Assembly (NCBI RefSeq): GCF_011045215.1
Contig: NZ_CP049201.1
DNA length: 64,000 nucleotides
DNA from: Escherichia coli
Lineage (GTDB): Bacteria; Pseudomonadota; Gammaproteobacteria; Enterobacterales; Enterobacteriaceae
Direction: 5' to 3' (one strand)
The translations under genes were made by a program, and so were the position numbers. The number at the start of each line of letters is the position of its first letter. Positions within the stretch are counted from its first letter, which is position 1. Positions 4,731-63,528 of this stretch are shown piece by piece. The notes beneath the pieces are model-generated. The model searched no databases. It had not been told where the DNA came from and saw only the letters and a list, made by a program, of their open reading frames with translations.

Positions 4731-4842
4731 TGCCTGATGCCGATTCGTAGGCCGGATAAGGCGCTCGCGCCGCATCCGGCGATGGTGCACTGAAGCCTGA
4801 TGCGACGCTTACCGCGTCTTATCATGCCTACTGGGAGCACGC
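4731..4842. repeat. REP/BIME repetitive extragenic palindrome cluster
   Basis: Copies of GCCTGATGCGACGC...CGTCTTATCAGGCCTAC / GCCGGATAAGGCG...CGCATCCGGC motifs between ytfQ and ytfR. Confidence 0.8.
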
Positions 4843-10984: not shown

Positions 10985-11090
10985 TTGCCGGATAAGGCGT
11001 TTACGCCGCATCCGGCATTTGAGCATAGTGCCTGATGCGACGCTTGATGCGTCTTATCAGGCCTACAGGTGCACCGCATCCGGCAAACCA
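10985..11090. repeat. REP elements
   Basis: GCCGGATAAGGCGTTTACGCCGCATCCGGC and CCTGATGCGACGCTTGATGCGTCTTATCAGGCCTAC palindromic units after mpl. Confidence 0.8.
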
Positions 11091-21069: not shown

Positions 21070-21253
21070 CCTGTTGTCCTGTAACGTGTTGTTTAATTAT
21101 TTGAGCCTAACTTTACCCGTGCATTCAGCAATGGGTAAAGTCTGGTTTATCGTTGGTTTAGTTGCCAGCAGGTATTATATCGCCATAGATGCTACGAATA
21201 TTATTGGATTCTCCTTATTATTTGCGGCGCTTTTTTCACTTACCGGAGGTTAT

Positions 21254-21307
21254 ATGGAACCTGATCCCACGCCTCTCCCTCGACGGAGATTAAAACTTTT
21301 CCGGTAA
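21254..21307 (+). CDS. mgtL: mgtA leader peptide MgtL (proline-rich, 17 aa)
   Basis: ATG at 21254 encodes [17 protein letters not shown] inside the long mgtA 5' leader. Confidence 0.75.
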
Positions 21308-21447
21308 GCCCGTCTTTTCACGGCGTTACCGGATGCGTAAGGCCGTGACGTTTTAACGTCCCTGCTCAGCTTTATTACCTTCAGGTAAGGCTTCGCCACG
21401 CCTGAAGACATTTCTGTACTGTTTCAGACAGTGCGGAGGGACTCCTT

Positions 21448-24144
21448 ATGTTTAAAGAAATTTTTACCCGGCTCATTCGCCATTTACCTTCCCGTCTGGT
21501 TCATCGTGATCCATTGCCTGGCGCGCAGCAGACAGTGAATACGGTGGTCCCGCCGTCCTTAAGTGCGCATTGCCTGAAAATGGCGGTGATGCCCGAAGAA
21601 GAATTGTGGAAAACGTTCGACACCCATCCGGAAGGGTTAAATCAGGCGGAAGTGGAATCTGCCCGCGAACAACATGGTGAAAATAAATTACCCGCACAAC
21701 AACCGTCGCCGTGGTGGGTACATTTATGGGTCTGCTATCGCAACCCCTTTAATATTTTACTCACCATTCTCGGCGCTATTTCTTACGCCACGGAAGATTT
21801 ATTTGCTGCGGGCGTTATCGCGCTAATGGTCGCTATTTCTACGTTGCTGAACTTTATTCAGGAAGCACGTTCCACTAAAGCGGCAGATGCCCTGAAAGCG
21901 ATGGTCAGCAATACTGCGACGGTGCTGCGCGTAATTAACGACAAAGGCGAAAATGGCTGGCTGGAGATCCCGATCGACCAGCTGGTGCCCGGCGATATTA
22001 TAAAACTGGCGGCGGGAGATATGATCCCGGCAGATTTACGTATCTTGCAGGCGCGGGATCTGTTCGTCGCTCAGGCGTCGTTAACCGGTGAGTCTCTGCC
22101 CGTAGAAAAAGCCGCTACCACTCGCCAGCCGGAGCACAGCAATCCGCTGGAGTGCGACACGCTGTGTTTTATGGGCACCACCGTGGTGAGCGGCACGGCA
22201 CAAGCAATGGTGATTGCTACAGGTGCCAATACCTGGTTTGGTCAACTGGCGGGGCGTGTTAGTGAGCAGGAAAGCGAGCCGAATGCCTTTCAGCAAGGGA
22301 TCAGCCGCGTCAGTATGCTGCTGATTCGCTTTATGCTGGTGATGGCACCGGTGGTGCTGTTAATCAATGGCTACACCAAAGGCGACTGGTGGGAAGCGGC
22401 GCTGTTTGCGCTTTCGGTCGCGGTAGGCCTAACGCCGGAAATGTTGCCGATGATTGTTACCTCGACGCTGGCGCGCGGCGCAGTAAAGCTGTCGAAACAG
22501 AAAGTGATCGTCAAACATCTGGATGCTATTCAGAACTTTGGCGCAATGGATATTCTGTGCACTGATAAAACCGGCACCCTGACACAGGATAAAATTGTGC
22601 TGGAGAATCATACCGATATCTCCGGTAAAACCAGCGAACGCGTGCTGCATAGCGCGTGGTTGAACAGTCATTATCAGACCGGACTTAAAAACCTGCTCGA
22701 TACAGCGGTGCTCGAAGGTACGGATGAAGAGTCAGCGCGCTCGCTGGCCAGTCGTTGGCAAAAAATCGATGAGATTCCGTTTGATTTCGAGCGTCGCCGG
22801 ATGTCGGTGGTAGTGGCAGAAAATACCGAGCACCATCAGCTGGTTTGCAAAGGTGCATTGCAGGAAATCCTCAATGTGTGTTCGCAGGTGCGTCACAATG
22901 GCGAGATTGTGCCGCTCGATGACATCATGCTGCGTAAGATTAAGCGGGTTACTGATACGCTGAATCGTCAGGGGCTGCGCGTGGTTGCGGTGGCGACGAA
23001 ATACCTGCCAGCGCGTGAAGGAGATTACCAGCGGGCGGATGAATCCGACCTGATCCTCGAAGGATATATTGCTTTTCTTGATCCGCCAAAAGAGACAACC
23101 GCTCCGGCACTGAAGGCATTAAAAGCGAGTGGAATTACCGTAAAAATCCTTACTGGCGACAGTGAGTTAGTTGCAGCGAAAGTGTGCCATGAAGTGGGGC
23201 TGGACGCGGGAGAGGTGGTCATTGGTAGTGATATTGAAACGCTATCTGACGACGAACTGGCAAATCTTGCACAGCGTACCACGCTGTTTGCCCGCCTGAC
23301 GCCGATGCATAAAGAACGCATTGTGACCTTACTGAAGCGCGAAGGGCATGTGGTTGGCTTTATGGGCGATGGTATTAATGATGCGCCCGCCTTACGCGCT
23401 GCGGATATCGGCATTTCTGTGGACGGCGCGGTAGATATTGCCCGTGAAGCGGCTGATATCATCCTGCTGGAAAAAAGCCTGATGGTGCTGGAAGAGGGGG
23501 TTATTGAGGGACGACGCACTTTCGCCAACATGCTGAAATACATCAAAATGACGGCGAGTTCTAACTTCGGTAATGTGTTCAGCGTGCTGGTGGCGAGTGC
23601 TTTCTTGCCCTTCCTGCCGATGTTGCCGTTACACTTGCTTATTCAGAACCTGCTGTACGATGTGTCACAGGTGGCGATCCCGTTTGATAACGTCGACGAC
23701 GAGCAAATTCAAAAGCCGCAGCGTTGGAATCCGGCGGATCTGGGGCGCTTTATGATCTTCTTCGGACCGATCAGCTCGATCTTCGATATTCTGACGTTTT
23801 GCCTGATGTGGTGGGTATTCCATGCCAACACGCCGGAAACGCAAACGCTGTTCCAGTCGGGATGGTTTGTGGTGGGCTTACTGTCGCAAACGCTGATTGT
23901 GCATATGATCCGCACCCGGCGTGTGCCGTTTATTCAGAGCTGTGCATCGTGGCCGTTAATGATCATGACCGTGATCGTGATGATTGTCGGGATCGCATTG
24001 CCGTTTTCACCGCTGGCCAGTTATCTGCAATTACAGGCGCTGCCGTTAAGCTATTTCCCGTGGCTGGTTGCGATTCTGGCAGGGTATATGACATTAACCC
24101 AGTTGGTGAAAGGGTTCTATAGCCGTCGTTACGGCTGGCAATAA
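21448..24144 (+). CDS. mgtA: Magnesium-transporting P-type ATPase
   Basis: 898 aa; DKTGTLT phosphorylation motif, GDGINDAPAL hinge motif. Confidence 0.92.
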   Translation: MFKEIFTRLIRHLPSRLVHRDPLPGAQQTVNTVVPPSLSAHCLKMAVMPEEELWKTFDTHPEGLNQAEVESAREQHGENKLPAQQPSPWWVHLWVCYRNPFNILLTILGAISYATEDLFAAGVIALMVAISTLLNFIQEARSTKAADALKAMVSNTATVLRVINDKGENGWLEIPIDQLVPGDIIKLAAGDMIPADLRILQARDLFVAQASLTGESLPVEKAATTRQPEHSNPLECDTLCFMGTTVVSGTAQAMVIATGANTWFGQLAGRVSEQESEPNAFQQGISRVSMLLIRFMLVMAPVVLLINGYTKGDWWEAALFALSVAVGLTPEMLPMIVTSTLARGAVKLSKQKVIVKHLDAIQNFGAMDILCTDKTGTLTQDKIVLENHTDISGKTSERVLHSAWLNSHYQTGLKNLLDTAVLEGTDEESARSLASRWQKIDEIPFDFERRRMSVVVAENTEHHQLVCKGALQEILNVCSQVRHNGEIVPLDDIMLRKIKRVTDTLNRQGLRVVAVATKYLPAREGDYQRADESDLILEGYIAFLDPPKETTAPALKALKASGITVKILTGDSELVAAKVCHEVGLDAGEVVIGSDIETLSDDELANLAQRTTLFARLTPMHKERIVTLLKREGHVVGFMGDGINDAPALRAADIGISVDGAVDIAREAADIILLEKSLMVLEEGVIEGRRTFANMLKYIKMTASSNFGNVFSVLVASAFLPFLPMLPLHLLIQNLLYDVSQVAIPFDNVDDEQIQKPQRWNPADLGRFMIFFGPISSIFDILTFCLMWWVFHANTPETQTLFQSGWFVVGLLSQTLIVHMIRTRRVPFIQSCASWPLMIMTVIVMIVGIALPFSPLASYLQLQALPLSYFPWLVAILAGYMTLTQLVKGFYSRRYGWQ

Positions 24145-37895: not shown

Positions 37896-39729
<1,834 letters not shown>

Positions 39730-45182: not shown

Positions 45183-45267
45183 GCCGAAGTGGCGAAATCG
45201 GTAGACGCAGTTGATTCAAAATCAACCGTAGAAATACGTGCCGGTTCGAGTCCGGCCTTCGGCACCA
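45183..45267 (+). tRNA. leuX: tRNA-Leu (anticodon CAA)
   Basis: 85-nt sequence GCCGAAGTGGCGAAATCGGTAGACGCAGTTGATTCAAAATCAACC...GGTTCGAGTCCGGCCTTCGGCACCA; anticodon loop TTCAAAA; long variable arm; CCA end. Confidence 0.93.
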
Positions 45268-45456
45268 TAAAAAGCTTTTTTCAAGTCTACCAACGTCTAC
45301 TTTAGTCCATAAAAACAGTAAGTTAAGCAGAGTTTTGGCCTTTCTTAGTCTGTTCACGTCTACTTACTTCTATCCACATATACCAACGAATGATGGTATA
45401 ACTGGTGGTATCTTCGGTTCGATTGATTTTGATACCAACAGCGGAGGTATCAACTG

Positions 45457-46707
45457 ATGGCACTTACTGATATCAAAGTTAGGACTACCAAGCCCTCCGA
45501 CAAACCTTTCAAACTCACAGATGGGCAGGGTATGCACCTGCTGATCAACCCCAATGGTTCAAAATACTGGCGACTCCAATACCGTTTCGATGGCAAACAG
45601 AAAGTTTTAGCATTGGGTGTTTATCCAATGGTCTCTCTTGGTGAAGCTCGCAGGAAACGAGATGAGGCTAAAAAGTTGGTATCTGATGGTATCGACCCTT
45701 CCGAGAAGAAAAAGGCAGACAAGATCGAGCAGAGCGAAGCTCTTACTTTTGAATCTGTTGCCAGGGACTGGCATAAGGCTTGTAAAAGGAAATGGTCAGA
45801 TTCCCATAGCGAGAGAGTTCTAAAAAGCATGGAAGATGGTCTCTTTACTGCTCTTGGTAAAAGAAAAATATCCGAGCTTAATACCAGAGATCTTCTTGCC
45901 CCTATCAAGGCTGTTGAAGCTTCTGGGCGACTGGAAGTTGCTTCCCGCCTACAGCAAAGAACAACGGCAGTGATGCGATATGCTGTCCAGAACGGGCTGA
46001 TAGATTACAACCCTGCCCAGGAGATGGCAGGAGCTATTGCAGTAGCTAAAAGAGTCCACAGGCCAGCTTTGCCATTCGAACGATTCTCAGAACTTTTAGA
46101 ACGAATTGATAGTTTCAAGGGTAGAAAACTCACGAAGTTAGCCGTAAAGCTGACATTGCTCATTTTCATTCGTTCCAGTGAACTTAGGTTTGCTCGTTGG
46201 TCAGAGATAGATTTCGACAATGCCATGTGGACTATCCCTGGGGAACGTGAGCCATTGCCAGGGGTCAAACATTCTCATCGAGGCTCAAAAATGAAGACAC
46301 CACACCTCGTGCCGTTAAGTCGCCAGGCTATAGAACTCCTCAAAGCTATCAAAGAAATCAGCGGTGAATGTGAACTTGTATTCATTGGTGATCATGATTT
46401 TAGAAAGCCTATGAGTGAAAACACGGTAAACAAGGCTTTAAGGTCTATGGGCTACGACACTACGGTTGAAGTATGTGGACATGGTTTTCGTGCGATGGCA
46501 TGTAGTGCGTTGATCGAATCGGGAAAATGGTCAAGGGATGCTGTTGAACGGCAGATGAGCCACCAAGAGCGAAACTCCGTTCGTGCTGCCTACATTCATA
46601 AAGCAGAACACCTTGATGAAAGAAGGCTTATGTTGCAGTGGTGGGCTGATTACCTTAATGCCTTGAAAGATAGGTTTATCAGTCCCTTTGATTTTACAAC
46701 AAAGTAG
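45457..46707 (+). CDS. intB: P4-family tyrosine integrase (IntB-like) with N-terminal DUF4102-type domain
   Basis: 416 aa, MALTDIKVRTTKPSDKPFKLTDGQGMHLLINPNGSKYWRLQYRFDGKQK N-terminus typical of tRNA-associated island integrases; C-terminal HGFRAMA...R...Y catalytic region; lies 190 bp from the leuX 3' end. Confidence 0.9.
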   Translation: MALTDIKVRTTKPSDKPFKLTDGQGMHLLINPNGSKYWRLQYRFDGKQKVLALGVYPMVSLGEARRKRDEAKKLVSDGIDPSEKKKADKIEQSEALTFESVARDWHKACKRKWSDSHSERVLKSMEDGLFTALGKRKISELNTRDLLAPIKAVEASGRLEVASRLQQRTTAVMRYAVQNGLIDYNPAQEMAGAIAVAKRVHRPALPFERFSELLERIDSFKGRKLTKLAVKLTLLIFIRSSELRFARWSEIDFDNAMWTIPGEREPLPGVKHSHRGSKMKTPHLVPLSRQAIELLKAIKEISGECELVFIGDHDFRKPMSENTVNKALRSMGYDTTVEVCGHGFRAMACSALIESGKWSRDAVERQMSHQERNSVRAAYIHKAEHLDERRLMLQWWADYLNALKDRFISPFDFTTK

Positions 46708-46794
46708 CTTGATCAACGATTAACTATCCACTGGCATAGCCGTGTGATATGATTACAATGGCTATATTTTTAATTTAAATTTAATAGGTAAAAA

Positions 46795-47934
46795 ATGTCC
46801 ACAATTAACCCCGCAATTTTTTCTTTTTTCTCTGGTTCAGGATTTCTTGATCTTGGATTTGAAAAAAATGGTTATGAAGTGGTTTTCGTGAATGAATACC
46901 ATGCTCCGTTTATGGATGCATATAAACATTCGAGGAAAAAATTAAATATAGCACCACCTCGTTTTGGGTATGCAGAGTGCAGTATTGAAGATGTAGAACA
47001 TGAAAAAATTAAGTCTTCTATGCTTCAACTTAAAAATGAGGGGCGATTGACTGGATTTATTGGTGGTCCACCATGCCCGGATTTCTCTGTAGCGGGTAAA
47101 AATAAAGGTCGAGATGGTGAAAACGGTCGGCTTTCACAAAGCTATATTGATATCATTCTTGAAATGAAACCAGATTTCTTTCTTTTTGAGAATGTTAAAG
47201 GTCTATACCGTACCAGTAAACATAGGGAATTTTTTGACCATTTAAAAACTCAATTAGAATCGGTTGGTTATTGTTTGCATGAAAAACTAATAAATTCTAT
47301 TGAATATGGTGCTCCTCAAGATAGGCAACGAATCATATTGATTGGTTTCCTTGATGAAAAATATGCAAGCCAATTCAATTGGGGGCAAAGAGTCTACCCT
47401 GAAAGAACTGCATTTGAATATAAATGGCCGACGACAAACCAATTTTCAGAAAACACTTCTGTTATAAAACCAAAGGGTATCCCAGAAGAGTTAACAGTAG
47501 AGCATTGGTTCAAGAAAAACCAGGTTGATAATCATCCAAATGCAAAGCATGTATTCGCGGCAAGAGCAGGGCTTGCGAGGTTTTTGACTGTCGAAGAAGG
47601 GGATGATAGTAAAAAATCCTATAAAAGGTTACATAGATGGAGATTTTCACCAACTGCTGCTTACGGTAATAATGAGGTACATTTACATCCTTATAAACCA
47701 AGAAGAATTACTGTTGCCGAAGCATTAGCAATTCAGTCTTTACCAAAAGAATTTGAATTACCTGCTTATATGACTCTGTCTAATATGTTTAAAACTGTCG
47801 GTAACGGTGTACCCTACTTAGCAGCGGCCGGTATTGCCAAATCTATTATAGAGCATTTAGGAATCGAATATGAGAGTAACTGCGGCGAACTTAGCACAGG
47901 CGATTGCCAATCTACCAAGAAACACGCAGTTTAA
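46795..47934 (+). CDS. DNA (cytosine-5)-methyltransferase
   Basis: 379 aa with C5-MTase motifs: I FSGSGFLDLGFE (FxGxG), IV GGPPCPDFS (Pro-Cys), VI FLFENV, VIII QDRQR, X GNGVP near C-terminus; AT-rich. Confidence 0.85.
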   Translation: MSTINPAIFSFFSGSGFLDLGFEKNGYEVVFVNEYHAPFMDAYKHSRKKLNIAPPRFGYAECSIEDVEHEKIKSSMLQLKNEGRLTGFIGGPPCPDFSVAGKNKGRDGENGRLSQSYIDIILEMKPDFFLFENVKGLYRTSKHREFFDHLKTQLESVGYCLHEKLINSIEYGAPQDRQRIILIGFLDEKYASQFNWGQRVYPERTAFEYKWPTTNQFSENTSVIKPKGIPEELTVEHWFKKNQVDNHPNAKHVFAARAGLARFLTVEEGDDSKKSYKRLHRWRFSPTAAYGNNEVHLHPYKPRRITVAEALAIQSLPKEFELPAYMTLSNMFKTVGNGVPYLAAAGIAKSIIEHLGIEYESNCGELSTGDCQSTKKHAV

Positions 47935-48946
47935 TTATGTAAATGTGCGAAATTCGGGAAGAATCATTGTAACGAATGTTCAACTTCCCGAAGGCCCAAT
48001 AGAATTCAAAAGATTCGATCCAAAAAAGGGTGAGACACTGCATAGTTCTAAATCGGAAAGCATCTCCACACAAATGTTGTGGAGATTGGCTAATGCTTTA
48101 CAGGAAGATGTCCCTGTCAATTTGGATCGTATTTTTGGTGCAAGCTATAATACACGTGCTGTTCTCGAAAGCCTTTTGGCCCATACTCCTGAGTTTTATT
48201 GGTGTAAGCTTGATCGCCTTGAGGTAATGAACACTCAGAAAAATATTAAAAAAGGTCACAAGCACCTTATTTATAGACCAAATGACCCACATGAAAATGG
48301 TGTAGCAATAGAACATACTACTAATGTTATAATTTCTGAAATGAATTTAGATGTTGTCCATCAATCAGTTGATATAGAGACAATCTTACCTACTAAAGGA
48401 ATGACGATTGAGGAAAAAAGACGTCATGCACAAATTCAAATCTCATTAGTAAAAATAGGTCATTACTTAGGTTATCGGACATGGGTTGCAGCAAATGATC
48501 GTGGCCTCCAATATAATGGAAAATCTATAGCCCAAATGGATGGGGTCATAGATAATTTAAGAAATGAACAAGTGCTTCAATCATATGATAAAGCTATCAA
48601 AGAAGCTCGGCTTATAGATTGTATTTGGTTTCGAAATGGAAAATTAATGCCTGCAGTTATGGAGATTGAGCATAGCACTGGTATTAAAAGTGGTTTGGTA
48701 AGGATGAAACAATTTTATGATTATGCACCACAGTTAAAAAATATACGTTGGACCGTTGTGGCACCTGACGAATATAGAAATAAAGTTATAGAGTTTTCTA
48801 ATATGCCACAATTTAAAGAATTAGATACTCGATTCTTCCCCTATTCTGCTGTAGAGGAACTCTATTCATTATGTGCAAGAAGGAATCCTCAAGGAATTAC
48901 AGACGATTTCCTTGATGCATTCATGGAAAAGTGTGTGACACATTAA
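47870..48946 (+). CDS. Putative nuclease-like partner of the methyltransferase (candidate restriction endonuclease); function inferred
   Basis: 358-aa ORF; ATG with AGGA SD overlaps MTase 3' end by 65 nt (translational coupling); C-terminal D...E-x-E-x(6)-K-like stretch (LIDCIWF...VMEIEHSTGIK) compatible with a PD-(D/E)xK core. Confidence 0.45.
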   Translation: MRVTAANLAQAIANLPRNTQFNYVNVRNSGRIIVTNVQLPEGPIEFKRFDPKKGETLHSSKSESISTQMLWRLANALQEDVPVNLDRIFGASYNTRAVLESLLAHTPEFYWCKLDRLEVMNTQKNIKKGHKHLIYRPNDPHENGVAIEHTTNVIISEMNLDVVHQSVDIETILPTKGMTIEEKRRHAQIQISLVKIGHYLGYRTWVAANDRGLQYNGKSIAQMDGVIDNLRNEQVLQSYDKAIKEARLIDCIWFRNGKLMPAVMEIEHSTGIKSGLVRMKQFYDYAPQLKNIRWTVVAPDEYRNKVIEFSNMPQFKELDTRFFPYSAVEELYSLCARRNPQGITDDFLDAFMEKCVTH

Positions 48947-49083
48947 TCCTTCATAATCAGTTACCGGAGCAAATTACTTTTCTCCGGTTGGTTAACTGAA
49001 TATTAGTATTAAAATCTGATGGTGTTTATTTTATAAATATCAAATGTAATGGTATTTTCAATAATTATATCTAAGAGCGGTTT

Positions 49084-49893
49084 ATGAGAGTAATTAGCCC
49101 CTTTGAGGAATTGAAGAACTGGTTTAATCTTGATAACTATGAACCGATAAAATCGTTTACAATCAAGGAACTACATAGAGAGATTGTCTTTAGAGAAGCG
49201 ATTTTCGACAGTGTAAATTTTGGATGGGAAGATGATAATCAAAATTTAAGGTCTATCCTTGAAGGTAATCCTATTTTAAGCAGACAAGATAATAATCATG
49301 GTCATTTTGGCAAGGGCCAAAGACATGTTGCGCAGGTTAGCTTTGGTGATATAAAAAAATTAGAGAATAAGTTGATAATGTTTAGCATGGATTTTTTTGA
49401 AGAAAATGGTGATTTCAAAAAAGAGTTGAAAAAGAAACCAATAACAAAAACTATGAGAGACTTTTTTCTCAACAAAAATAGCAGCAAGATGTATGTATCA
49501 TTTGATTTGGGGTTATCTAGTGATGAGGAAATTATATCAGCCCTGCAAACTATGCTTCCAACTCTAAGGAAAGAATACGAGATTGACCCAGTAAAAACAG
49601 AAAAGATAGGGCTCGCAAAAATAAGAAAACTTGTCGATTACAACATTATTCCTATGATGGACTTACTAATTTGGTCAAAATTCAAAAAAGCAAAAATCTC
49701 AAATATGGTCTTGTCTCGTGTGTTGTATCCTGATTTCACTCACGAGATTAGAGGCGAAGATCACATTAAAGATACAGACAGGCCCATTGCTGAGAAGGCT
49801 TTAAATGGAGAGATAACTCGTAGTTTGGAGTACTTTCTTAGTAAAAACAGTCATCTCATCAACATACCGATTTCAGAACTCGGATCTCTCTAG
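49084..49893 (+). CDS. Hypothetical protein (269 aa), no recognisable motif
   Basis: Long AT-rich ORF, same strand as R-M-like pair. Confidence 0.55.
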   Translation: MRVISPFEELKNWFNLDNYEPIKSFTIKELHREIVFREAIFDSVNFGWEDDNQNLRSILEGNPILSRQDNNHGHFGKGQRHVAQVSFGDIKKLENKLIMFSMDFFEENGDFKKELKKKPITKTMRDFFLNKNSSKMYVSFDLGLSSDEEIISALQTMLPTLRKEYEIDPVKTEKIGLAKIRKLVDYNIIPMMDLLIWSKFKKAKISNMVLSRVLYPDFTHEIRGEDHIKDTDRPIAEKALNGEITRSLEYFLSKNSHLINIPISELGSL

Positions 49894-50058
49894 CTATAAA
49901 TCATCATGCAATTGTCAAGGGGATGGTGAAAATATTTTTCTTCCCCTAAATTTCTCTCCATTCTTTCCTCATCTAAATTTTCAGTTATCAGCACTCCCTT
50001 CATAGATACAAATCTGTGTGGCTAATATCTCCTTAACGGAAGCGGAGGAGACAGCCAA

Positions 50059-50265
50059 ATGAATACAACCAATCAAAGCTTAATTCGTTTACCAGAAGTC
50101 TTGAAACGAACTGGTTTCGGCAAGGCCTGGATCTATCGTCTGATCAGTGAAGGTCGGTTTCCGGCACCCGTTAAGATCGGAATTCGTGCCGTTGCTTTTG
50201 TCGAGAGTGAAGTTGACGAGTGGATTCTATCAGTTATCGAAACAAACAGAATTAAAGTTGCTTAA
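50059..50265 (+). CDS. alpA: AlpA-family transcriptional regulator / excisionase-like DNA-binding protein
   Basis: 68 aa; LIRLPEVLKRTGFGKAWIYRLISEGRFPAPVKIG...VAFVESEVDEWI matches the AlpA/MerR-like HTH of prophage CP4-57-type regulators. Confidence 0.85.
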   Translation: MNTTNQSLIRLPEVLKRTGFGKAWIYRLISEGRFPAPVKIGIRAVAFVESEVDEWILSVIETNRIKVA

Positions 50266-50286
50266 TTAAACCTAGGAGAGATTTTT

Positions 50287-50601
50287 ATGAATATCGAAGA
50301 ATTTATGAATGAAGAAAACCATATGTGCAATTTAGGCGAGGATCTTTTTTGCAAGATCTTCGAACCCGGAGCGATTTATGATTTGCCGAATAGCGATTTT
50401 AATAAAGAAATCATTTACTGGCTCAGTCAGTATCTTGTCGGAAATTTGAGACAACCTTTAGACGCGATCTCTGAGCTTGATATTTTCGAGCAGTTTTATG
50501 TTTACGAGACATGGTTCTCGCTAATTAAATGCCCAGATGAAATTAGAAATTTATCGAAACGGATAATTCGATATCAGATTGGGTTAAAAACCATTCTTTG
50601 A
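50287..50601 (+). CDS. Hypothetical protein (104 aa)
   Basis: ORF immediately downstream of alpA, 21-nt gap. Confidence 0.5.
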   Translation: MNIEEFMNEENHMCNLGEDLFCKIFEPGAIYDLPNSDFNKEIIYWLSQYLVGNLRQPLDAISELDIFEQFYVYETWFSLIKCPDEIRNLSKRIIRYQIGLKTIL

Positions 50602-50732
50602 AAGAACCTATATTTAGTACTATTTTGTAAATTGCATTGTTGAAATGATAGTGCTATTTGCTTTTTGATTTACAAAACATCTTTAACTTCTTTTAAAATA
50701 ATGGGTTAACTATTTTAAGTGAAAAGAAAGGA

Positions 50733-50762
50733 TTATAATATCCCTCTAGAGGGATATTATAA
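50733..50762. promoter_or_regulatory. 30-bp perfect palindrome upstream of the recombinase operon (candidate operator or recombination site)
   Basis: TTATAATATCCCTCTAGAGGGATATTATAA is perfectly self-complementary; lies about 130 bp upstream of the first recombinase gene in an AT-rich leader. Confidence 0.5.
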
Positions 50763-50893
50763 ATTTTCGGCCGGTATGCGTCATTGTAAAAGGGAATAAT
50801 ATTAAATTCAGGAAAATATATTTGTAAATTGCTTATGTTATATGCTTTATTTATTTTCACTGACAATTAAATGTAAATAGAGGCGATATTACT

Positions 50894-52156
50894 TTGAAAT
50901 ATAAAATAAAAAGATTGAAGAATAAAGATGGTATCAGAAGTTGCATTATTATTAATGAGAGCAACGGATTACCCTTGGTTTATTCTAACTTATATATGAG
51001 TGTTATTTCACGAACAAATAGCTATTCATTTTCAACAATGGAAGCAATAGCAAATGCTTTGCTTTTATTTGAAAGATATAATGCTTACATGAATGTGGAT
51101 GTTTTTGATATGGTAAATCCTGACATCGAAAAACTTGTCTCGAACAAAGGATATTTATTCGGGTTAATGAATGCCCTTTCTTACAGAAACGACTTAGAGA
51201 ATGTTACAAGCATTCTTAAAGAACAACATGTCTCTAAAAGAACCCTTTATTTCAAGATAATGACAATTGAAAATTACGTCAAATGGTTTTTTGATAACAT
51301 TGCTATCAATAATATTGATTCTTCTCGTTATGAAGCAATCAGTCGAGCATTTGATTTTATAAAGCCAAGAATAGAGAACGGAAAGAATTACAATATTGAA
51401 AGCGAAAGCAAATCATTGACAAATGAGCAAGTTACAACTTTGACTGATATGGTAAGTGTTAAATCTAAGATTAATCCATTTTCGGAGCATGTAAGGTTTC
51501 GAAATAATCTAATAATTAAAATTTTATTAGAGACAGGTATTAGGGGAGGGGAACTACTTAATATTAAGTTGGTTGATTTTGACTATGTCCACAAAAGTCT
51601 ATGCATAGTAAGAAGGCCAGATGATCAAAACGAACCACGATTAAGGCAACCATTGGTTAAAACTTTAGAAAGAAAAATACCATTGAGTATAGAATTGACT
51701 GAGTTAATACAGAATTATATTAGTGATTTCAGAGGTAAGCAGTGTCATGCAGGGGAGCATGACTATCTGCTTGTTACTCATAGCAGTAAAGGTCAATTAG
51801 GTCATGCATTAACTATTTCAGGTTATCAGAAAATTTTCGAACAAATTAGGAAAAATAGTAATGTTTTGAGCGATATTGTGGGGCATTCGCTAAGACATAC
51901 TTGGAATGTGAAATTCTCAGAAATGATGCTCATGAATTCGAACTCTCAGGAATATATTACTTATGAGAAAGTAAGAAATTATCTTATGGGGTGGAAAAAG
52001 AATAGTACAACCTCAGATATCTATAACCAAGCATTTATAGCACAAGAAAGCCGAAAAATAATGGCTGTTATTAATCCACTCAAAAACATAGTAGAGGACA
52101 AATCCAATGTTTCAAACTCTAAGAAAGCTACAAGAAAGTCAATATTCGGTTTTTGA
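50894..52156 (+). CDS. Tyrosine recombinase 1 of a three-recombinase operon
   Basis: 420-aa ORF (TTG at 50894; first ATG at 50996); conserved ETGIRGGELLNIKLVDF (box I Arg), HSLRHTW (HxxR) and ...SDIYNQ (Tyr) catalytic elements. Confidence 0.75.
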   Translation: MKYKIKRLKNKDGIRSCIIINESNGLPLVYSNLYMSVISRTNSYSFSTMEAIANALLLFERYNAYMNVDVFDMVNPDIEKLVSNKGYLFGLMNALSYRNDLENVTSILKEQHVSKRTLYFKIMTIENYVKWFFDNIAINNIDSSRYEAISRAFDFIKPRIENGKNYNIESESKSLTNEQVTTLTDMVSVKSKINPFSEHVRFRNNLIIKILLETGIRGGELLNIKLVDFDYVHKSLCIVRRPDDQNEPRLRQPLVKTLERKIPLSIELTELIQNYISDFRGKQCHAGEHDYLLVTHSSKGQLGHALTISGYQKIFEQIRKNSNVLSDIVGHSLRHTWNVKFSEMMLMNSNSQEYITYEKVRNYLMGWKKNSTTSDIYNQAFIAQESRKIMAVINPLKNIVEDKSNVSNSKKATRKSIFGF

Positions 52157-53432
52157 AACCAAGGATGGTAATTTCAAAGTGAACTTTTCTTATTCCAAGT
52201 GGAAGATAAGTGAAAGTATAACATTGAACATTGATTCTTTAAGAGTGGTCATCAGTGCATATATACCTATCAAAACCACTTTGGCATATTTCGCTATAAA
52301 TTATAGTGCCAGTTATACTAAGAAAATGTTTTATGCAGTAAAGCATTACATTAAGGCCTGTAATACGAATGATAGCTTGTTTTCTAAAGATTGCATAAAG
52401 TATTACTATAAAGTTGTGAGCTCATTAGATTACACACATGCAGAGACAGTCAAATATTTTTTTATGAAGATGAGTGGTCTTTACCCATCTTTGTTTTCGG
52501 CAGAAGCAATCATATTTTTAGAAAATATTAAAGTTAAAAAAACAAATGCAAACAAGTCTATAAAGACACATGATTATAAAAAAGGTCCCTTTAGTGACTC
52601 GCAATTAAAGGTAATTATAGATTCTGTAGCGATAGCTTATAAGGAAGAAAAGGTAAGTCTGTCAAACTATCTGCTAACCTTCCTTGTTGCATATTCCGGG
52701 CGGCGACCTATGCAAATATCTCAACTTGAAGCTGGTGATCTCTTTGCTTTTAATGGAGAGTACTTTCTCAATATCCCAAGAATTAAACAACGAAATGGAT
52801 ATAGAAAAGAGTTTAGAAAATTACAAATTCCAGAAGAGCTTTTTAGCCAATTGACATATCTCGTTGAAGCTGTGAATTCGCTGGTCAGTGACACATTAAA
52901 AATCGATTTAAGTGAAAAACAAAAGAGAAAACTACCAATTTTTATAAACACATATCCATTCAAAAAAGGATGTGTTGAGCTAAACATGATTGAAAGTGGT
53001 GGATTAAAACTTAACCCCTATGCCATAACACTAAAAATAAGGAACACTATAAATCGTTCAATAAATGAATATCAAGCCTATCTGGGGTGTATAAATTCGC
53101 GCAGATTTAGATATTCATTAGGCACTAAGGTTGCACAATTGGGTTATAGTCCTTCACTGATAGCAAATGTTTTGGACCATTCTTCAATCAATTCTGTTAT
53201 GAGTTATATAGAAAATACAGCGGAAAATGGCAAGAGAATTAATGAAGCTGTAAATGAACTAATGAAGCCACTGGCTAACAAATTTATTGAGGGAAAAGAG
53301 CTTCAGAAAGAGTTAGATTCTTTGAAGCATTTGATAGAAGAATACTGCGGTGGATATAAAACTAACTCTTTTGATAATACAGCAATATCGTTAGTAACTA
53401 ATTCTATCGACGATATGATCAATAGCATTTAA
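52107..53432 (+). CDS. Tyrosine recombinase 2 (divergent catalytic motifs)
   Basis: 441 aa; SD AGAGGA before ATG; AYSGRRPMQISQLEAGDL (box I), RRFRYSLG...LDHSSINSVMSYIE (box II-like with Tyr); overlaps upstream gene by 50 nt. Confidence 0.7.
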   Translation: MFQTLRKLQESQYSVFETKDGNFKVNFSYSKWKISESITLNIDSLRVVISAYIPIKTTLAYFAINYSASYTKKMFYAVKHYIKACNTNDSLFSKDCIKYYYKVVSSLDYTHAETVKYFFMKMSGLYPSLFSAEAIIFLENIKVKKTNANKSIKTHDYKKGPFSDSQLKVIIDSVAIAYKEEKVSLSNYLLTFLVAYSGRRPMQISQLEAGDLFAFNGEYFLNIPRIKQRNGYRKEFRKLQIPEELFSQLTYLVEAVNSLVSDTLKIDLSEKQKRKLPIFINTYPFKKGCVELNMIESGGLKLNPYAITLKIRNTINRSINEYQAYLGCINSRRFRYSLGTKVAQLGYSPSLIANVLDHSSINSVMSYIENTAENGKRINEAVNELMKPLANKFIEGKELQKELDSLKHLIEEYCGGYKTNSFDNTAISLVTNSIDDMINSI

Positions 53433-53447
53433 AAGAAGGATAAAGTG

Positions 53448-55052
53448 ATGAAAGAAATCCATGATAAAATGATTAATAACTTCATTATCGCTAATAAGGC
53501 CCATGCGAAAAATTTTGGAAATTTTGAGTGGGATAATTCAAGTTGGGGAGGCGGAATTACATTTTTTAGCGGAATCAAGGTTAGAATGGGGAACAAGAAT
53601 AAGAAATTAATGAATTATAACATTGCAGAGTTCGCAAAAGCATATGTATGGCATGAGTGCTTTCATGATTTATCTGTAGCTTTCAGAGTGCTGAGATTAT
53701 TTAGGATATTAGAAATTGCCATAGGTAAAACAAATAAAGAAGTTAAGATTTCAAGTATAGATCATAAAGTATTAGATGAAGTTATGACTATTGTTCAAGA
53801 AAATTTTGCAATATCCACTTCTTATAAAATATATTTAGATCTTAGGGTATTATGTTCTTTTATGTCTAAGAACGAAATGTTGCCAGAATCCATTACACGA
53901 TGGTCATATCCATTTAAGGCATATGATGCTTACACAAATAGCACAATGGATTCGATGGGAAATTTATCCAATCAGAAAAAACTTCCTGATGAAAAGGCTA
54001 TAGATTTTATTGGTAAAATATTTAGCTCTAATCCAGTTAATGAAAGGGATATATTTACATCTTCTATTTTTGCATTGCTCTTATGTGCTCCATCTCGAAT
54101 TAGTGAAATTATGCTTTTAGAAGAGGACTGTGAAGTTATAGTTGAAGATAGTAATGGCATATCAAGATATGGTTTGCGATTTCTTTCTCTGAAGGGCTTT
54201 GGATACAATACCAAATGGATTCCAGACTGTATGGTTTCTGTAGCTTCAAAGGCTATCATGCGATTGAAAAAACTTACAAGGAATGCAAGGGTTGTTTCTC
54301 GGTTAATAAAAGCAGGGGAAATTAATTTATACGAGTCATTAAACAAAAGTGCGTTTGATTGTTTAACAATTGAAGATCTCCACAAACTTGGCTTTGTTAT
54401 AAATCAATTAAATATCTCCCAAGAAAATCTAAAATTCTTGGCTAAGATAAAACATGGTACAGTCAGTGTAAAAGCATTTTGGATTTATATAGAGCGAAAG
54501 AATGTTAATTCTGAAAATATTAATGCTAATTTATGCTCCATAAATCATAATTTATTGGACTCTATCAAGGGTGCTGATATTTTTACAACAATTAAGGCAT
54601 CTTCAAAGTATTTTAGAGCGGATTTTCGCACCGATAATATGAATAACATATTTCATAGGAATATACATTTTAACTGTGATGGTTCTGTTTTAATTTTCCG
54701 CAGCCATCAAATTAGACATTTACTTAATACTATAGCTCAACGAAGCGTATTGTCAGAGATACAAATTGCCCAATGGTCTGGGAGAAGGAGTGTTAAGCAG
54801 AATTCAGTATATGATCATATGTCTCACAACGAGTTATCAGAACTATCAAGGAAACTATTGAACGGAAACACCTACGAAGAAACAAAAATTTCAGCATCTT
54901 CATTTAATGAACAATCGATTATTATGAATTTGATTAAAGATAAATTTGAAAAACTAGAATTAAAAATCCAAAATTCAGATCCAAGAAAAAGAAAATATAT
55001 TCTGGAAAAAATTAAAGATTTAAGATTGGAAATTGAATACATATTAATGTGA
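53448..55052 (+). CDS. Tyrosine recombinase 3
   Basis: About 534 aa (GTG-ATG at 53445/53448); CAPSRISEIMLLEEDC (box I), HQIRHLLNTIAQ (HxxRH), ...SVYDHMSHNE (Tyr). Confidence 0.7.
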   Translation: MKEIHDKMINNFIIANKAHAKNFGNFEWDNSSWGGGITFFSGIKVRMGNKNKKLMNYNIAEFAKAYVWHECFHDLSVAFRVLRLFRILEIAIGKTNKEVKISSIDHKVLDEVMTIVQENFAISTSYKIYLDLRVLCSFMSKNEMLPESITRWSYPFKAYDAYTNSTMDSMGNLSNQKKLPDEKAIDFIGKIFSSNPVNERDIFTSSIFALLLCAPSRISEIMLLEEDCEVIVEDSNGISRYGLRFLSLKGFGYNTKWIPDCMVSVASKAIMRLKKLTRNARVVSRLIKAGEINLYESLNKSAFDCLTIEDLHKLGFVINQLNISQENLKFLAKIKHGTVSVKAFWIYIERKNVNSENINANLCSINHNLLDSIKGADIFTTIKASSKYFRADFRTDNMNNIFHRNIHFNCDGSVLIFRSHQIRHLLNTIAQRSVLSEIQIAQWSGRRSVKQNSVYDHMSHNELSELSRKLLNGNTYEETKISASSFNEQSIIMNLIKDKFEKLELKIQNSDPRKRKYILEKIKDLRLEIEYILM

Positions 55053-55061
55053 GGAGATTAT

Positions 55062-55460
55062 ATGGCAAGAAAGTTTTATGATAAAGAAATAAAAGCTATT
55101 GTTAAACTTATTGAAACCTGGAGTAAGCCTGATTTCACTTGGGATTCTTTATGCGTGGCTTGCAAAAAAATTTTAGGTAAAGTACCTACACGGCAAGCAT
55201 TAAGCCAGCATAGTGAGATTGTCGTTGCGTATAGGACCAGAAAAAGATCTGGTATGGTTAAACGTCAAAATACGAAGTTACCCGGTAGCCTGAGCCTTGC
55301 GGCGAAAAGAATAGAACGACTTGAAAATGATAATTCGGCACTAAAATATGAAAATAATAATTTACTGCTTATGATTCAAAGAATGCACGAAAATGCTTAC
55401 AGGCATAATATATTGGCTTCTATTCTTGAAGAAGAATTTCCACAGAGAGCAAGAAAATAA
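55062..55460 (+). CDS. Small basic protein, fourth gene of the recombinase operon (possible DNA-binding accessory factor)
   Basis: 132 aa, starts 9 nt after recombinase 3; Lys/Arg-rich with predicted coiled-coil C-terminus. Confidence 0.55.
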   Translation: MARKFYDKEIKAIVKLIETWSKPDFTWDSLCVACKKILGKVPTRQALSQHSEIVVAYRTRKRSGMVKRQNTKLPGSLSLAAKRIERLENDNSALKYENNNLLLMIQRMHENAYRHNILASILEEEFPQRARK

Positions 55461-55545
55461 TATTTTGATAGGTTTTATCTATTGACAGGTGATGTTAATA
55501 TGGTATTTGTAAATATAGTCAGGAAGACAAAACTAACTTGCAAGG

Positions 55546-55983
55546 ATGCAATTTATGGACAAACAACACAATTTTCCAGTGGAAACACTGGAAGAGCAGC
55601 TTATTATTATCGTTGATAAATATATCTCAAAACGGTACCAGCCGGGCGATAAAAGTTTCTCATACCAGCTATACCTGCTTTTTGTTGGCTATCACTTAAA
55701 GTATTTCTACCCCAAAAAACTTTATACTCGCTCTAATCGCAACATAGACAACATTATGACAATGTTTAGTTCTGTATACAAATGTCTTACAAGTACTTTG
55801 TTACAGCGATTAAATAATAAGGAAGCTGTTATCAGGGAGCTAAACTCTCTCGTTAACTATATTGATAACAATCAAGAACGAGCAGAAGAAATCTTTATAG
55901 CTATCAAAACTCAATATGAGATAAAAGCAATAGAGAAAGAACTAACCCATGAAGTCGTTAGAGTAAAAAATGTTAGATTATAA
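55546..55983 (+). CDS. Hypothetical protein (145 aa)
   Basis: ORF ending at an intrinsic terminator. Confidence 0.5.
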   Translation: MQFMDKQHNFPVETLEEQLIIIVDKYISKRYQPGDKSFSYQLYLLFVGYHLKYFYPKKLYTRSNRNIDNIMTMFSSVYKCLTSTLLQRLNNKEAVIRELNSLVNYIDNNQERAEEIFIAIKTQYEIKAIEKELTHEVVRVKNVRL

Positions 55984-56010
55984 AAGCTCCCGAAAGGGAG
56001 CTTCATTTTA
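55982..56010. terminator. Bidirectional intrinsic terminator
   Basis: AGCTCCC-GAAA-GGGAGCT hairpin with flanking A/T runs between convergent genes. Confidence 0.7.
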
Positions 56011-56023
56011 CTAATTTTCTTTA

Positions 56024-56287
56024 TTAATAACTTCCTACTTGCCAGCCATCATCTGATTTTATTAATTTAACTGTTCCAGCTTGCTTTGTTCCGCTCATAT
56101 CCATAATTATATTGCACTTATAGCTTTTATCAGATTCTTTTGTGCAATCTACTTTTTTTACTGAAGTCAGATAGCTTCCAGTCCATTTTCGCATAGCTTT
56201 AAAAATATCATCTTGGGAAGGCTCACTACTACATGCAGTAAGAAGAAATACGGAAATAATAACAGCAAGGACCGAAGATATTTTCAT
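56024..56287 (-). CDS. Small lipoprotein
   Basis: 87 aa; signal peptide with lipobox LLTAC. Confidence 0.6.
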   Translation of the reverse strand: MKISSVLAVIISVFLLTACSSEPSQDDIFKAMRKWTGSYLTSVKKVDCTKESDKSYKCNIIMDMSGTKQAGTVKLIKSDDGWQVGSY

Positions 56288-56311
56288 TAGACTTAATCCT
56301 GATTAAGTATG

Positions 56312-56698
56312 TTACTGAAAAATGCCAGATTTTGTATTATTATTATCAGTAGAGAATGTCCATTTGCTGACAATTTCGCCTTTAAAATCTATTTCAAGAG
56401 TTTTGGACTGAGTCTGTGAACCACCAGTTAGTAGCCCAACTACAGGAATGAAAGTCGAGGCATTGAACTGATTGTTATACATAAAATATCTCCATTGCTC
56501 GTTGCCATCATCAAGAGTCGTTCTTGTATCTGGTTCACCTAACTTAGCGAGTAGCTCGTTCTTAGTAGTCTTGTTTTTAATGATCTTTGACTGAAGACTT
56601 TGTGCAGTTTCATTTTCAATTTGTTGGTTCCCGGATGTTGAGCAGCCAGAAATTAAAAATATTGCAATGAAAAAGGCGGTAACAATAGATTTATTCAT
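56312..56698 (-). CDS. Lipoprotein
   Basis: 128 aa; signal peptide with lipobox LISGC. Confidence 0.6.
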   Translation of the reverse strand: MNKSIVTAFFIAIFLISGCSTSGNQQIENETAQSLQSKIIKNKTTKNELLAKLGEPDTRTTLDDGNEQWRYFMYNNQFNASTFIPVVGLLTGGSQTQSKTLEIDFKGEIVSKWTFSTDNNNTKSGIFQ

Positions 56699-56727
56699 TC
56701 TATCTTCCTTATTATATTTGGTCAGGG

Positions 56728-57006
56728 TTAACTTTTATGTGTGAAAACGGCTCTGTGGGCAAATTTCTTGCGTAAATAAAATCTTAAAGAAATTGCTGAG
56801 GCAAAATAGATAACGACAGTTAATATAAAACTTTGACTGATAGCGAATATGAAGAAAGCAATTACTAACAGCACAATTCCTATGAGTAAAGCTAACCAGG
56901 CCGAAGGTTCACCATAATTTATTGTTGCGTGACAGCCGATACAGACACGAACTCCGAACGGACTCTCTTTGAAGCAGAACGGGCACTTAATGGTCTCTTT
57001 ACTCAT
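56728..57006 (-). CDS. Small membrane protein with N-terminal zinc-ribbon
   Basis: 92 aa; CPFC...CIGCH then one hydrophobic helix. Confidence 0.5.
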   Translation of the reverse strand: MSKETIKCPFCFKESPFGVRVCIGCHATINYGEPSAWLALLIGIVLLVIAFFIFAISQSFILTVVIYFASAISLRFYLRKKFAHRAVFTHKS

Positions 57007-57259
57007 ACAAACTCCGTTTATTCAACAGGTTCCTGATACTACAAATTGTTTAAAAATCATCAGGTTCTTTTCAGGGATTCTCGATGAATAATTATCTTTA
57101 GTAAAATCACTTGTACCGATCGATGTTTGAATCATGATAGGTAAAAACTATCATAACTAGATTATCGATCTGTATTAACGATCAATAATTTCTTGACATA
57201 ATATAAATTAGTTACTGTATAGTTAAGAGTGTTTGAGAATAATCAATACAAGTAATTGT

Positions 57260-58405
57260 CTATAAACGAATTTTTATCGCCTTGTTTAAAGGTTTCATTG
57301 CGTAGATATTTGAGAAGGTCGTGTGTGTTTTGTGAAGAATGGTCTTACCAAAGCTTCTCAGAAGCTCGATGTAATGCTTTATGGAAGCAAGCCACTCTAC
57401 GAATCTGAGATGCTTTTGCCGTTGTACTGCATTTTTTTGAAGAATCTTTCCTACGATTTCGTTTCGTTTGTCTTCTCTAAGCCGTAATTCCAGTTCTGCA
57501 ATTTTTTCAACGATACTTTCCTTTCTCTCAGTGGTTTTCAACACTGTTGCAGGAGCAGGAGCAGCAGGTTGGTCTTTTGTCGATATGTCGCTTCGTAGAG
57601 CTTCTAAGTGGTCGGGGTTGTAGTTAAGCCGATTACTGAGATTTGCCCAGGAGTAGCTCTTGCCCAATTGTGAAGCTTTGAAAGCTATGCCTGTGTATTC
57701 GAAAGAGAAGCCGTTCATTTTACCGGTAGAGGCAATATTGGCCTTCCAAGATACTTCAGCTTCTTCCAGCCTCTTGATAAAAGTTAGAAGGTCCGGCTTA
57801 TCAGATAAACTTTTATCAAGTATCTGCTGCAGAGCTTCTCTTGGTGAAAGCACCCCGGTTCGTTCCGATAGCATTTTCTCATTACGGGACACTCTCTTCC
57901 GCTTCGGTTGTGCTTGCGAGGGGGGAGATGCAGTTTTGGTCACTGTCAGGCCATGAGCGATTTCGAGTTTACTGATGATCTGTGTGCTGATGAGGTTTTC
58001 GTTCCTACCCAAGTAGAGCTTCCCACCATTGAGATCTATGCGACTTGCGATAATGTGTATGTGCTGGCCATCGTCGTCATGAAGCACATAGCAACGAAGG
58101 TGAGTATCCCTGAACCCCATCCTCTTCATGTAGTCATCTGCGATAATGGACCACTGTTCATTCGTTAGTGTTTCACCGTCGGGTAAGCGAAGTGAGTTGT
58201 GCCAAACGGGTTTTGCGACATCTAGGCGAAGATGCTTGGTGCTATCGAATTCAGCGATCATTTCAACGGCTGAATCACTTAACATGTTCCCGCCAATGAC
58301 GACTGGATCGCTTTTGTGGTGTGCTCCCGATTGTAATACATAACGAACAACACCAGCGAAGCTCTTACCCCTCTTGATCTTCCGCATACCCTTCACGAGG
58401 GACAC
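57260..58405 (-). CDS. Mobilisation relaxase (MobA/VirD2-like nuclease domain)
   Basis: 381 aa; three-histidine relaxase motif HDDDGQHIHIIASRIDL; immediately downstream of a MobC-like gene. Confidence 0.75.
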   Translation of the reverse strand: MSLVKGMRKIKRGKSFAGVVRYVLQSGAHHKSDPVVIGGNMLSDSAVEMIAEFDSTKHLRLDVAKPVWHNSLRLPDGETLTNEQWSIIADDYMKRMGFRDTHLRCYVLHDDDGQHIHIIASRIDLNGGKLYLGRNENLISTQIISKLEIAHGLTVTKTASPPSQAQPKRKRVSRNEKMLSERTGVLSPREALQQILDKSLSDKPDLLTFIKRLEEAEVSWKANIASTGKMNGFSFEYTGIAFKASQLGKSYSWANLSNRLNYNPDHLEALRSDISTKDQPAAPAPATVLKTTERKESIVEKIAELELRLREDKRNEIVGKILQKNAVQRQKHLRFVEWLASIKHYIELLRSFGKTILHKTHTTFSNIYAMKPLNKAIKIRL

Positions 58406-63519: not shown

Positions 63520-63528
63520 GAAATCCCC

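Follow-up and report, generated by a model that had tools for sequence, protein, structure and literature searches.

The mgtL-mgtA and pyrL-pyrBI leaders of a 64-kb Escherichia coli chromosome segment correspond to two characterized leader-peptide regulatory regions

The stretch of Escherichia coli DNA analyzed here (contig NZ_CP049201.1; 64,000 nucleotides (nt), hereafter the window) is a 64-kb chromosome segment that runs from tamB to the transfer RNA (tRNA) gene leuX and then into an island. Within it the genes are ordered treC-treB-treR / mgtL-mgtA / ridA-pyrI-pyrB-pyrL / yjgH, with treR (ATG at 21069, minus strand) divergent from mgtA, and our subjects are the two leader regions that precede mgtA and the pyrBI operon, of which the first adjusts a magnesium importer and the second pyrimidine synthesis. 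The RefSeq annotation has mgtL, mgtA, pyrL, and pyrB at matching positions, O157 and K-12 included. We conclude that these are almost certainly two independent, already characterized leader-peptide regulatory regions that work as has been proposed for them. By alignment, positions 1-45267 (tamB to the leuX tRNA) are ~99% identical to E. coli O157:H7 PV15-279; beyond leuX lies the island, which differs from that strain.

The region upstream of mgtA, at 21100-21447, had been described from its sequence as a long mgtA leader containing a proline-rich mgtL open reading frame (ORF). Both mgtL and the leader are real, but the leader RNA itself covers only ~21186-21447, and positions 21100-21185 are promoter and intergenic DNA common to the divergent treR. 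We placed the transcription start (+1) at 21186 by means of the numbering in PMC11552253, which assigns GUAAGGCCGUGA to nt 152-163 and a C to position 175 (C175), with a one-base error being possible. The mgtA P1 promoter is PhoP/PhoQ-dependent and is activated at low external Mg2+ (PMC11552253). A pattern search for the PhoP box returned a single match on the two strands of the window, and the same box is present in K-12. The consensus by which we recognized GGTTTA-N5-GGTTTA as a PhoP box is what we take to be established knowledge. As the family definition has it, mgtA thus appears to be preceded by a PhoP-dependent promoter with a predicted PhoP box, and the TATTAT hexamer is, from its position, the probable -10 element. 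Relative to K-12, the promoter carries only two single-nucleotide polymorphisms (SNPs), both upstream of the -10 hexamer, at 21112 (T here, G in K-12) and 21165 (C here, T in K-12), and both are also found in O157:H7 and many other strains.

From the -10 hexamer up to the mgtA ATG, no base differs between the window and K-12 MG1655. Many E. coli genomes match the 390 bases at 21071-21460 with 100% identity and have mgtL and mgtA annotated at this place; of 5426 complete E. coli genomes, all but one (5425) contain the leader region. The Rfam family RF01056 (Magnesium-II) matched 21239-21354 at 125.8 bits (gathering score, 40; E = 5.5e-25), spanning model positions 1-115 of 115. The mgtA ORF scored 1607 bits against NCBIfam TIGR01524 (cutoff, 611); the leader thus precedes a gene for a Mg2+-translocating P-type ATPase. 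Like other members of the family, this leader has a proline-rich, acidic upstream ORF (uORF), mgtL, inside stem-loop A, with the Shine-Dalgarno sequence (SD) in the 5' arm, and stem A is reported to sequester the uORF SD (PMC11552253). Two further ORFs overlie the leader, at 21189-21293 (plus strand, 34 amino acids (aa)) and 21250-21411 (minus strand, 53 aa). We treated both as chance ORFs; they have no RefSeq annotation, and the insertions and deletions seen between genera would break their frames.

For pyrL, the preliminary description gave 26222-26356 on the minus strand, with a terminator hairpin within. These coordinates are exact, the ORF encoding MVQCVRHFVLPRLKKDAGLPFFFPLITHSQPLNRGAFFCPGVRR, and the hairpin and its T8 run were found inside them (Table 1). 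PyrL matched two protein families over its full length, Pfam PF08052 (117.1 bits; cutoff, 25; E = 3e-34) and the NCBIfam equivalog NF007587 (120.1 bits; cutoff, 61); no Rfam family matched the pyrL leader at its gathering score. The terminator has a predicted folding energy of -15.9 kcal/mol (z = -4.8), and none of 200 shuffled sequences folded as well. K-12 has the same bases at every position from the pyrBI -10 hexamer through the pyrB start, and the pyrL region was found in 5424 of 5426 complete E. coli genomes, with a best match of 99.6% identity. The -35/spacer region ahead of this hexamer is TTGCACCAC here and TTGCGCCGC in K-12, a difference of two SNPs, at 26405 and 26402. The A at 26402 differs from both aligned genomes (K-12 and O157), and this spacer SNP might change basal promoter strength.

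An ORF at 26211-26360 (minus strand, 49 aa) that overlies pyrL was likewise treated as a chance ORF; RefSeq does not annotate it, and cross-genus insertions and deletions would break its frame. As a separate observation, the intergenic DNA between yjgH and pyrL, upstream of the pyrBI promoter, contains an 11-nt exact direct repeat, ATATGCATTTT (plus strand), with its copies 101 nt apart at 26467-26477 and 26568-26578. There are only two copies, and the repeat may be due to chance.

Table 1. Positions of the mgtA and pyrBI leader features, the genes they precede, and genes of the leuX island, numbered from the first base of the window
Feature	Position	Strand	Description
PhoP box	21144-21160	+	Direct repeat GGTTTA-N5-GGTTTA, GGTTTATCGTTGGTTTA; replaces the -35 element of the mgtA promoter
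mgtA promoter -10 hexamer TATTAT (probable)	21173-21178	+	12 nt past the PhoP box, 7 nt ahead of +1
mgtA 5' leader RNA	21186-21447	+	~262 nt; 100% identical to K-12
Stem-loop A	21239-21308	+	Three-way junction around mgtL, OFF state; -21.6 kcal/mol, z = -2.5; Rfam structure
mgtL SD GGAGG	21245-21249	+	Within 5' arm of stem-loop A (arm 21239-21249); read from sequence
mgtL leader ORF	21254-21307	+	17 codons + stop, intact, ATG start, 4 Pro codons; from translation and RefSeq
Stem-loop C (alternative)	21300-21333	+	ON state; 3' arm of A + 5' arm of B; -18.4 kcal/mol, z = -4.0
Stem-loop B	21318-21348	+	OFF state; -17.0 kcal/mol, z = -3.6
Distal hairpin 1	21379-21407	+	-16.2 kcal/mol, z = -4.2
Distal hairpin 2	21412-21438	+	-14.3 kcal/mol, z = -5.2; overlaps mgtA SD
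mgtA SD GGAGGG	21435-21440	+	Overlapped by distal hairpin 2
mgtA	21448-24144	+	Mg2+-importing P-type ATPase, 898 aa; regulated gene
pyrBI -10 hexamer TATAAT	26387-26382	-	Same in K-12
Initially transcribed AATTTG	26374-26369	-	UTP-sensitive reiterative transcription site; agrees with the sequence in PMC7039003
pyrL SD GGGAGG	26366-26361	-	From sequence
pyrL leader ORF	26356-26222	-	44 codons + stop; spans the terminator, stops 3 nt before the pyrB ATG; RefSeq
Pause hairpin GCGTCT-GAAAAA-AGACGC	26324-26307	-	Forms in the minimum-free-energy fold of the leader
U-rich tract CCGUUUUUCUUCCCGUUG	26299-26282	-	Site of RNA polymerase slowing when UTP is scarce (PMC10135430)
Attenuator (intrinsic terminator)	26268-26241	-	8-bp G+C-rich hairpin 26268-26249, then U8 26248-26241; inside pyrL
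pyrB	26218-25283	-	311 aa; ATG at 26218; Pfam OTCace_N + OTCace
pyrI	25270-24809	-	153 aa; with pyrB, the regulated operon
P4-like integrase	45457-46707		
Type II restriction-modification pair	46795-47934, 47870-48946		Dcm-type methylase, then restriction endonuclease
DUF6387 protein			In leuX island
Two further tyrosine recombinases	50894-53432		
535-aa protein	53445-55052		Without family match
Intact MobA-type relaxase	57260-58405	-	
Ankyrin-repeat protein	61694-62296	-	200 aa
NsnC-like candidate defense gene	62644-63519	-	PADLOC 6e-94
NsnB-like/DUF3696 ATPase candidate defense gene	63529 onward, towards window end	-	

The z scores given for the mgtA leader folds compare each folding energy with those of shuffled sequences. 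Stem-loop C cannot coexist with A or B because it takes up the 3' arm of A and the 5' arm of B, and the mutually exclusive A + B and C folds that define the family are therefore predicted here on both thermodynamic and comparative grounds. We also computed constrained folds in which a ribosome-sized footprint was blocked. With the ribosome at Pro9 the predicted fold was C, and with the ribosome at the mgtL stop codon it was B; as a thermodynamic calculation only, this fold switching is in line with the published model. Within the leader, the proline-codon part of mgtL is the stretch richest in C and poorest in G, and the flanks of stem-loop B are pyrimidine-rich; such pyrimidine-rich flanks are the Rho utilization (rut) site of the closely similar corA leader (PMC11552253). 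A terminator scan found no canonical intrinsic terminator on the plus strand between 21000 and 21450. Separately, a K-12 Term-seq 3' end at 4467490 corresponds to window position 21313 (plus strand), just past stem-loop A and mgtL, where the loop of stem-loop C would lie.

To see the mgtA leader in other genera, we scanned one genome per species for 100,044 species with the codon pattern ATGGANCCNGANCCNACNCCNCTNCC, which returned 55 loci. Fifty-two of these were 15-17-codon ORFs located ~100-290 nt upstream of an mgtA-type gene, all in Enterobacteriaceae, with Citrobacter, Salmonella, Kosakonia, Leclercia, Atlantibacter, Pseudocitrobacter, Superficieibacter, Silvania, and Franconibacter among the genera represented. 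The other three (in Nonomuraea, Opitutaceae, and Actinacidiphila) were chance matches and were discarded. The MgtL peptides have in common the start M[DE]P[DE]PTPLP, which the search pattern demanded, are variable past residue 9, and nearly always end in R. In the alignment of 53 leaders, the mgtL SD GGAGG was invariant (53 of 53). The base pairs of A and B were intact in 96.8% of alignment cells, compared to 37-50% in controls in which the pairing partner was slid by 1-3 columns. The outer helix of stem A was paired in 96.4% of cells and stem B in 98.5%, with compensatory changes at 6 of the 10 pairs of B. The 8-bp core of C, CCGGUAA/UUACCGG, was nearly invariant across genera, as expected because its bases must pair in two alternative helices.

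The pyrL leader could be followed through a smaller set, since 11 of the loci fetched for mgtL also hold pyrL leaders, giving 12 sequences with that of E. coli. All 12 taxa keep the -10 hexamer TATAAT, the SD, the ATG, the pause hairpin, the U tract, and the terminator with its T8-T9 run, the -10 hexamer and SD being invariant. AATTTG is present in 10 of the 12, and the two Pseudocitrobacter sequences have CCGTTTG. Compensatory changes were seen in both hairpins: a U-A to C-G change in the pause hairpin of Escherichia sp. ESNIH1 and a change in the terminator of Pseudocitrobacter. The pyrL ORF has 33, 34, 44, 45, or 48 codons, and its stop codon always falls within or beyond the terminator hairpin, as a mechanism in which the ribosome blocks the hairpin requires. 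The length itself varies by taxon: Salmonella arizonae and some Kosakonia have 33-34 codons; E. coli, Citrobacter, and Enterobacter Bisph1 have 44-45; and the others have 48, with which pyrL extends beyond the start codon of pyrB.

Short ORFs and hairpins are common in intergenic DNA, and those described above could in principle be chance features without a regulatory role. Simple promoter and terminator scans did give about as many sites in this DNA as in shuffled sequence, and chance ORFs of 20-50 codons that overlap the region are numerous. This explanation does not, however, account for full-length family-model matches with E values of 5.5e-25 for the RNA and 3e-34 for PyrL, for 100% identity to the experimentally studied K-12 leaders together with near-universal presence in E. 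coli, or for conservation across genera with compensatory base changes. We regard a chance origin as refuted by this evidence and give it almost no credence. As far as can be read from sequence, every defining feature of both families appears to be present. The comparison with characterized E. coli leaders that had been proposed as a check came out in favor of the preliminary description, since both transcribed leaders are identical to those of K-12 and the family models match. The divergence that would have disrupted the leader ORFs or hairpins was also looked for, and mgtL, pyrL, and the hairpins are all intact.

How the two leaders would respond to Mg2+, proline, and uridine triphosphate (UTP), and how termination would come about, we infer from the literature on the identical K-12 sequence and, for the mgtA leader, on Salmonella as well. 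PhoP~P bound to the PhoP box would start mgtA transcription at ~21186, and the resulting 262-nt leader would adopt one of two folds, an OFF state made of A and B, with mgtL inside A, or an ON state made of C. When cytoplasmic Mg2+ and proline-charged tRNA are ample, translation of mgtL would be completed, stem-loop B would form, and its pyrimidine-rich flanks would stay exposed; premature termination in the distal leader would follow, a step for which Salmonella depends on Rho, while its Rho dependence in E. coli is debated. Under low Mg2+, ribosomes would stall or drop off at the EPDP/proline codons, stem-loop C would form, and RNA polymerase would read into mgtA. Published work supports both branches, with high cytoplasmic Mg2+ giving efficient mgtL translation, the A + B OFF state, and premature termination, and low Mg2+ destabilizing ribosomes at the EPDP/proline codons, which leads to C and read-through (PMC11552253, PMC11282234). 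Proline limitation has the same effect as low Mg2+ on this leader (PMC5021804). The label of Mg2+/proline sensing that had been attached to the mgtA leader matches the literature (PMC11552253, PMC11282234, PMC5021804).

The mgtA leader might instead be chiefly a direct Mg2+-binding riboswitch, in which the RNA itself senses Mg2+ and chooses between A + B and C, and the response to Mg2+ does not require translation of mgtL. Rfam classes RF01056, which the window matches at the score given above, as a riboswitch aptamer; probing shows Mg2+-dependent alternative structures, and Mg2+-dependent RNA folding alone was enough to modulate Rho termination in vitro (both cited in PMC11552253). According to recent work, however, Mg2+ is sensed mainly by how efficiently mgtL is translated, with the ribosome-destabilizing EPDP motif as the means, rather than purely by an RNA riboswitch: translation efficiency was the primary determinant, and EPDP mutations abolished regulation (PMC11552253, PMC11282234). 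The N-terminal mgtL codons are also kept in the 52 leaders from other genera, although the search pattern demanded them. The two modes are not mutually exclusive, and we consider it unlikely that direct Mg2+ binding by the RNA predominates over sensing through mgtL translation.

The pyrBI leader would respond to UTP at two points. Transcription starts at AATTTG, where high UTP would favor nonproductive slippage on the T3 run; in the published work, high UTP diverts initiation at this sequence into released AAUUUn slippage products (PMC7039003). Reiterative transcription at AATTTG is a second UTP-sensitive control that the preliminary description did not include and that we add to it (PMC7039003). 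Productive transcripts would carry the 44-codon pyrL, the pause hairpin, the U-rich tract, and an intrinsic terminator within the ORF, and a hairpin pause in the pyrBI leader has been described (PMC10135430). At low UTP, RNA polymerase would lag in the U-rich tract, so that the first ribosome would catch up with it and physically block the terminator hairpin, and pyrBI would be transcribed; at high UTP, polymerase would outrun the ribosome, and transcription would terminate. This follows reports that scarcity of UTP slows polymerase in the U tract and that the leading ribosome prevents formation of the terminator hairpin (PMC10135430, PMC5021804); the same papers show, for the identical sequence of K-12, read-through that is sensitive to UTP and requires coupled translation. 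The designation of pyrL as a case of UTP-sensitive attenuation is in keeping with what has been published (PMC5021804, PMC10135430). As an observation in its own right, K-12 Term-seq data have a strong 3' end in pyrL at 4472452, which is window position 26275 (minus strand), at ~+100 and 7 nt upstream of the attenuator hairpin (PMC7815308). Among the 3' ends that the supplement text of PMC7815308 gives for pyrL, none lies at the U8 run.

Nothing argues against the identification of the two leaders. Some points do weigh against their working throughout as proposed. Rho-dependent termination went undetected for E. coli mgtA (Bastet et al. 2017, via PMC11552253 and the review PMC12360218), so that the mgtA model may end in another step than it does in Salmonella. 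It is also debated whether the RNA senses Mg2+ directly or whether mgtL translation does so (PMC11552253). Finally, both promoters carry SNPs relative to K-12, at 21112 and 21165 for mgtA and at 26405 and 26402 for pyrBI.

We commit ourselves to translation-controlled premature termination as the mode of action that the mgtA leader would use, and Rho is probably the factor that executes it in E. coli. In K-12, Term-seq with bicyclomycin placed a 3' end at 4467576, equivalent to window position 21399 and 49 nt before the mgtA ATG (PMC7815308 supplement). This end scored 1.56 for Rho and only 1.46 as an intrinsic terminator, and its entry reads "significant Rho termination region: Yes" (PMC7815308). 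Alternatively, the E. coli leader may be without Rho-dependent termination and may repress mgtA in some other way, for example by mRNA decay or by a distal hairpin that occludes the mgtA SD for translation. The hairpin at 21412-21438 does overlap that SD, the plus strand of the leader has no canonical intrinsic terminator, and a review raises the possibility that the mechanism is not conserved in E. coli (PMC12360218). This route has to be set against the K-12 3' end at 21399, flagged as lying in a significant Rho region, and against the rise of the mgtA transcript when mgtL translation fails (PMC11282234). On balance, a route without Rho seems to us doubtful while retaining some plausibility. 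As a joint proposition, that the E. coli mgtA leader ends transcription by a different route than that of Salmonella, or that the SNP A26402 alters the pyrBI promoter, strikes us as very unlikely, and neither would make the locus a new kind of element.

Several observations concern the surroundings of these leaders in the window. The stretch at 29814-31913, comprising the 3' part of yjgL and an argF/argI-type ornithine carbamoyltransferase gene, is 87.9% identical to O157:H7 between flanks of ~99% identity, a difference that suggests a recombined or divergent allele. The Rfam family Ysr276 (Yersinia small RNA 276) matched 38974-39168 (plus strand) over its full length with 184.7 bits, antisense within the pepA coding region, and this match probably reflects conservation of the coding sequence and not a separate RNA gene. 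Four Rfam naRNA4 matches, all on the plus strand (4750-4828, 10986-11063, 37966-38044, and 38065-38140), correspond to intergenic palindromic repeats of the repetitive extragenic palindromic/bacterial interspersed mosaic element (REP/BIME) type.

The integrative island occupies 45268-64000, where it adjoins the tRNA-Leu gene leuX (45183-45264), and is a mobile element with defense cargo (Table 1). None of the 5426 complete E. coli genomes covers at least 80% of it; the best coverage was 74%, at 97.1% identity, in enterotoxigenic E. coli (ETEC) strains, and in these relatives the relaxase gene is split by an IS66 element. A type III-A retron at 58886-61458 (minus strand) lies in a part of the island that is absent from the ETEC relatives. 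It consists of a reverse transcriptase gene at 58886-60049 (PADLOC RT_III-A, 5.6e-160) and a gene at 60238-61458 (minus strand) for an effector with phosphoribosyltransferase (PRTase) and winged helix-turn-helix domains (PRTase_III-A, 2e-93). No Rfam match to a retron msr/msd RNA was found at E <= 1 within 58700-62400; the 235-nt gap at 61459-61693, upstream of the PRTase gene, is the obvious candidate place for this RNA.

Both leaders are textbook systems that were already known, and they add nothing new to biology; their value here is that classic cis-regulatory leaders could be recognized from raw sequence at the correct coordinates. The use of Rho at mgtA in E. coli versus Salmonella is the sole open scientific point that they touch, and that debate predates this work and is not specific to the window.

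The nearest relative of the mgtA region is the K-12 mgtL-mgtA leader (b4702/b4242; RF01056), which has the same PhoP box, MgtL peptide, stem-loops A, B, and C, and distal hairpins, and from which the window differs by the two SNPs upstream of the -10 hexamer. The Salmonella enterica mgtA leader, whose mgtL reads MDPEPTPLPRWRIFLFR, has the same architecture, with the M[DE]P[DE]PTPLP start and A, B, and C kept and covariation in B, but it differs in the C-terminal half of the peptide and in the loop sequences. Rho-dependent termination is established for that leader, whereas it is disputed for that of E. coli. The corA-corL leader of E. coli and Salmonella is also alike in having a uORF in a three-way junction, exclusive OFF (A + B) and ON (C) states, and pyrimidine-rich rut flanks (PMC11552253); it lies outside the window and differs in that it precedes another gene, has a constitutive promoter without a PhoP box, and has a uORF with a single proline and a UUG start. 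For pyrL, the counterpart is the K-12 pyrL-pyrBI attenuator (b4246), with the same 44-aa peptide, pause hairpin, U tract, terminator, and AATTTG, the two -35/spacer SNPs being the difference. The trpL, hisL, and leuL attenuators resemble it in that translation of a leader peptide decides whether an intrinsic terminator forms. As is established and as PMC10135430 describes, however, those three respond to charged tRNA by stalling of the ribosome and employ an antiterminator hairpin, whereas pyrL senses UTP through the speed of RNA polymerase, and the ribosome itself blocks the terminator, so that no antiterminator pairing is needed.

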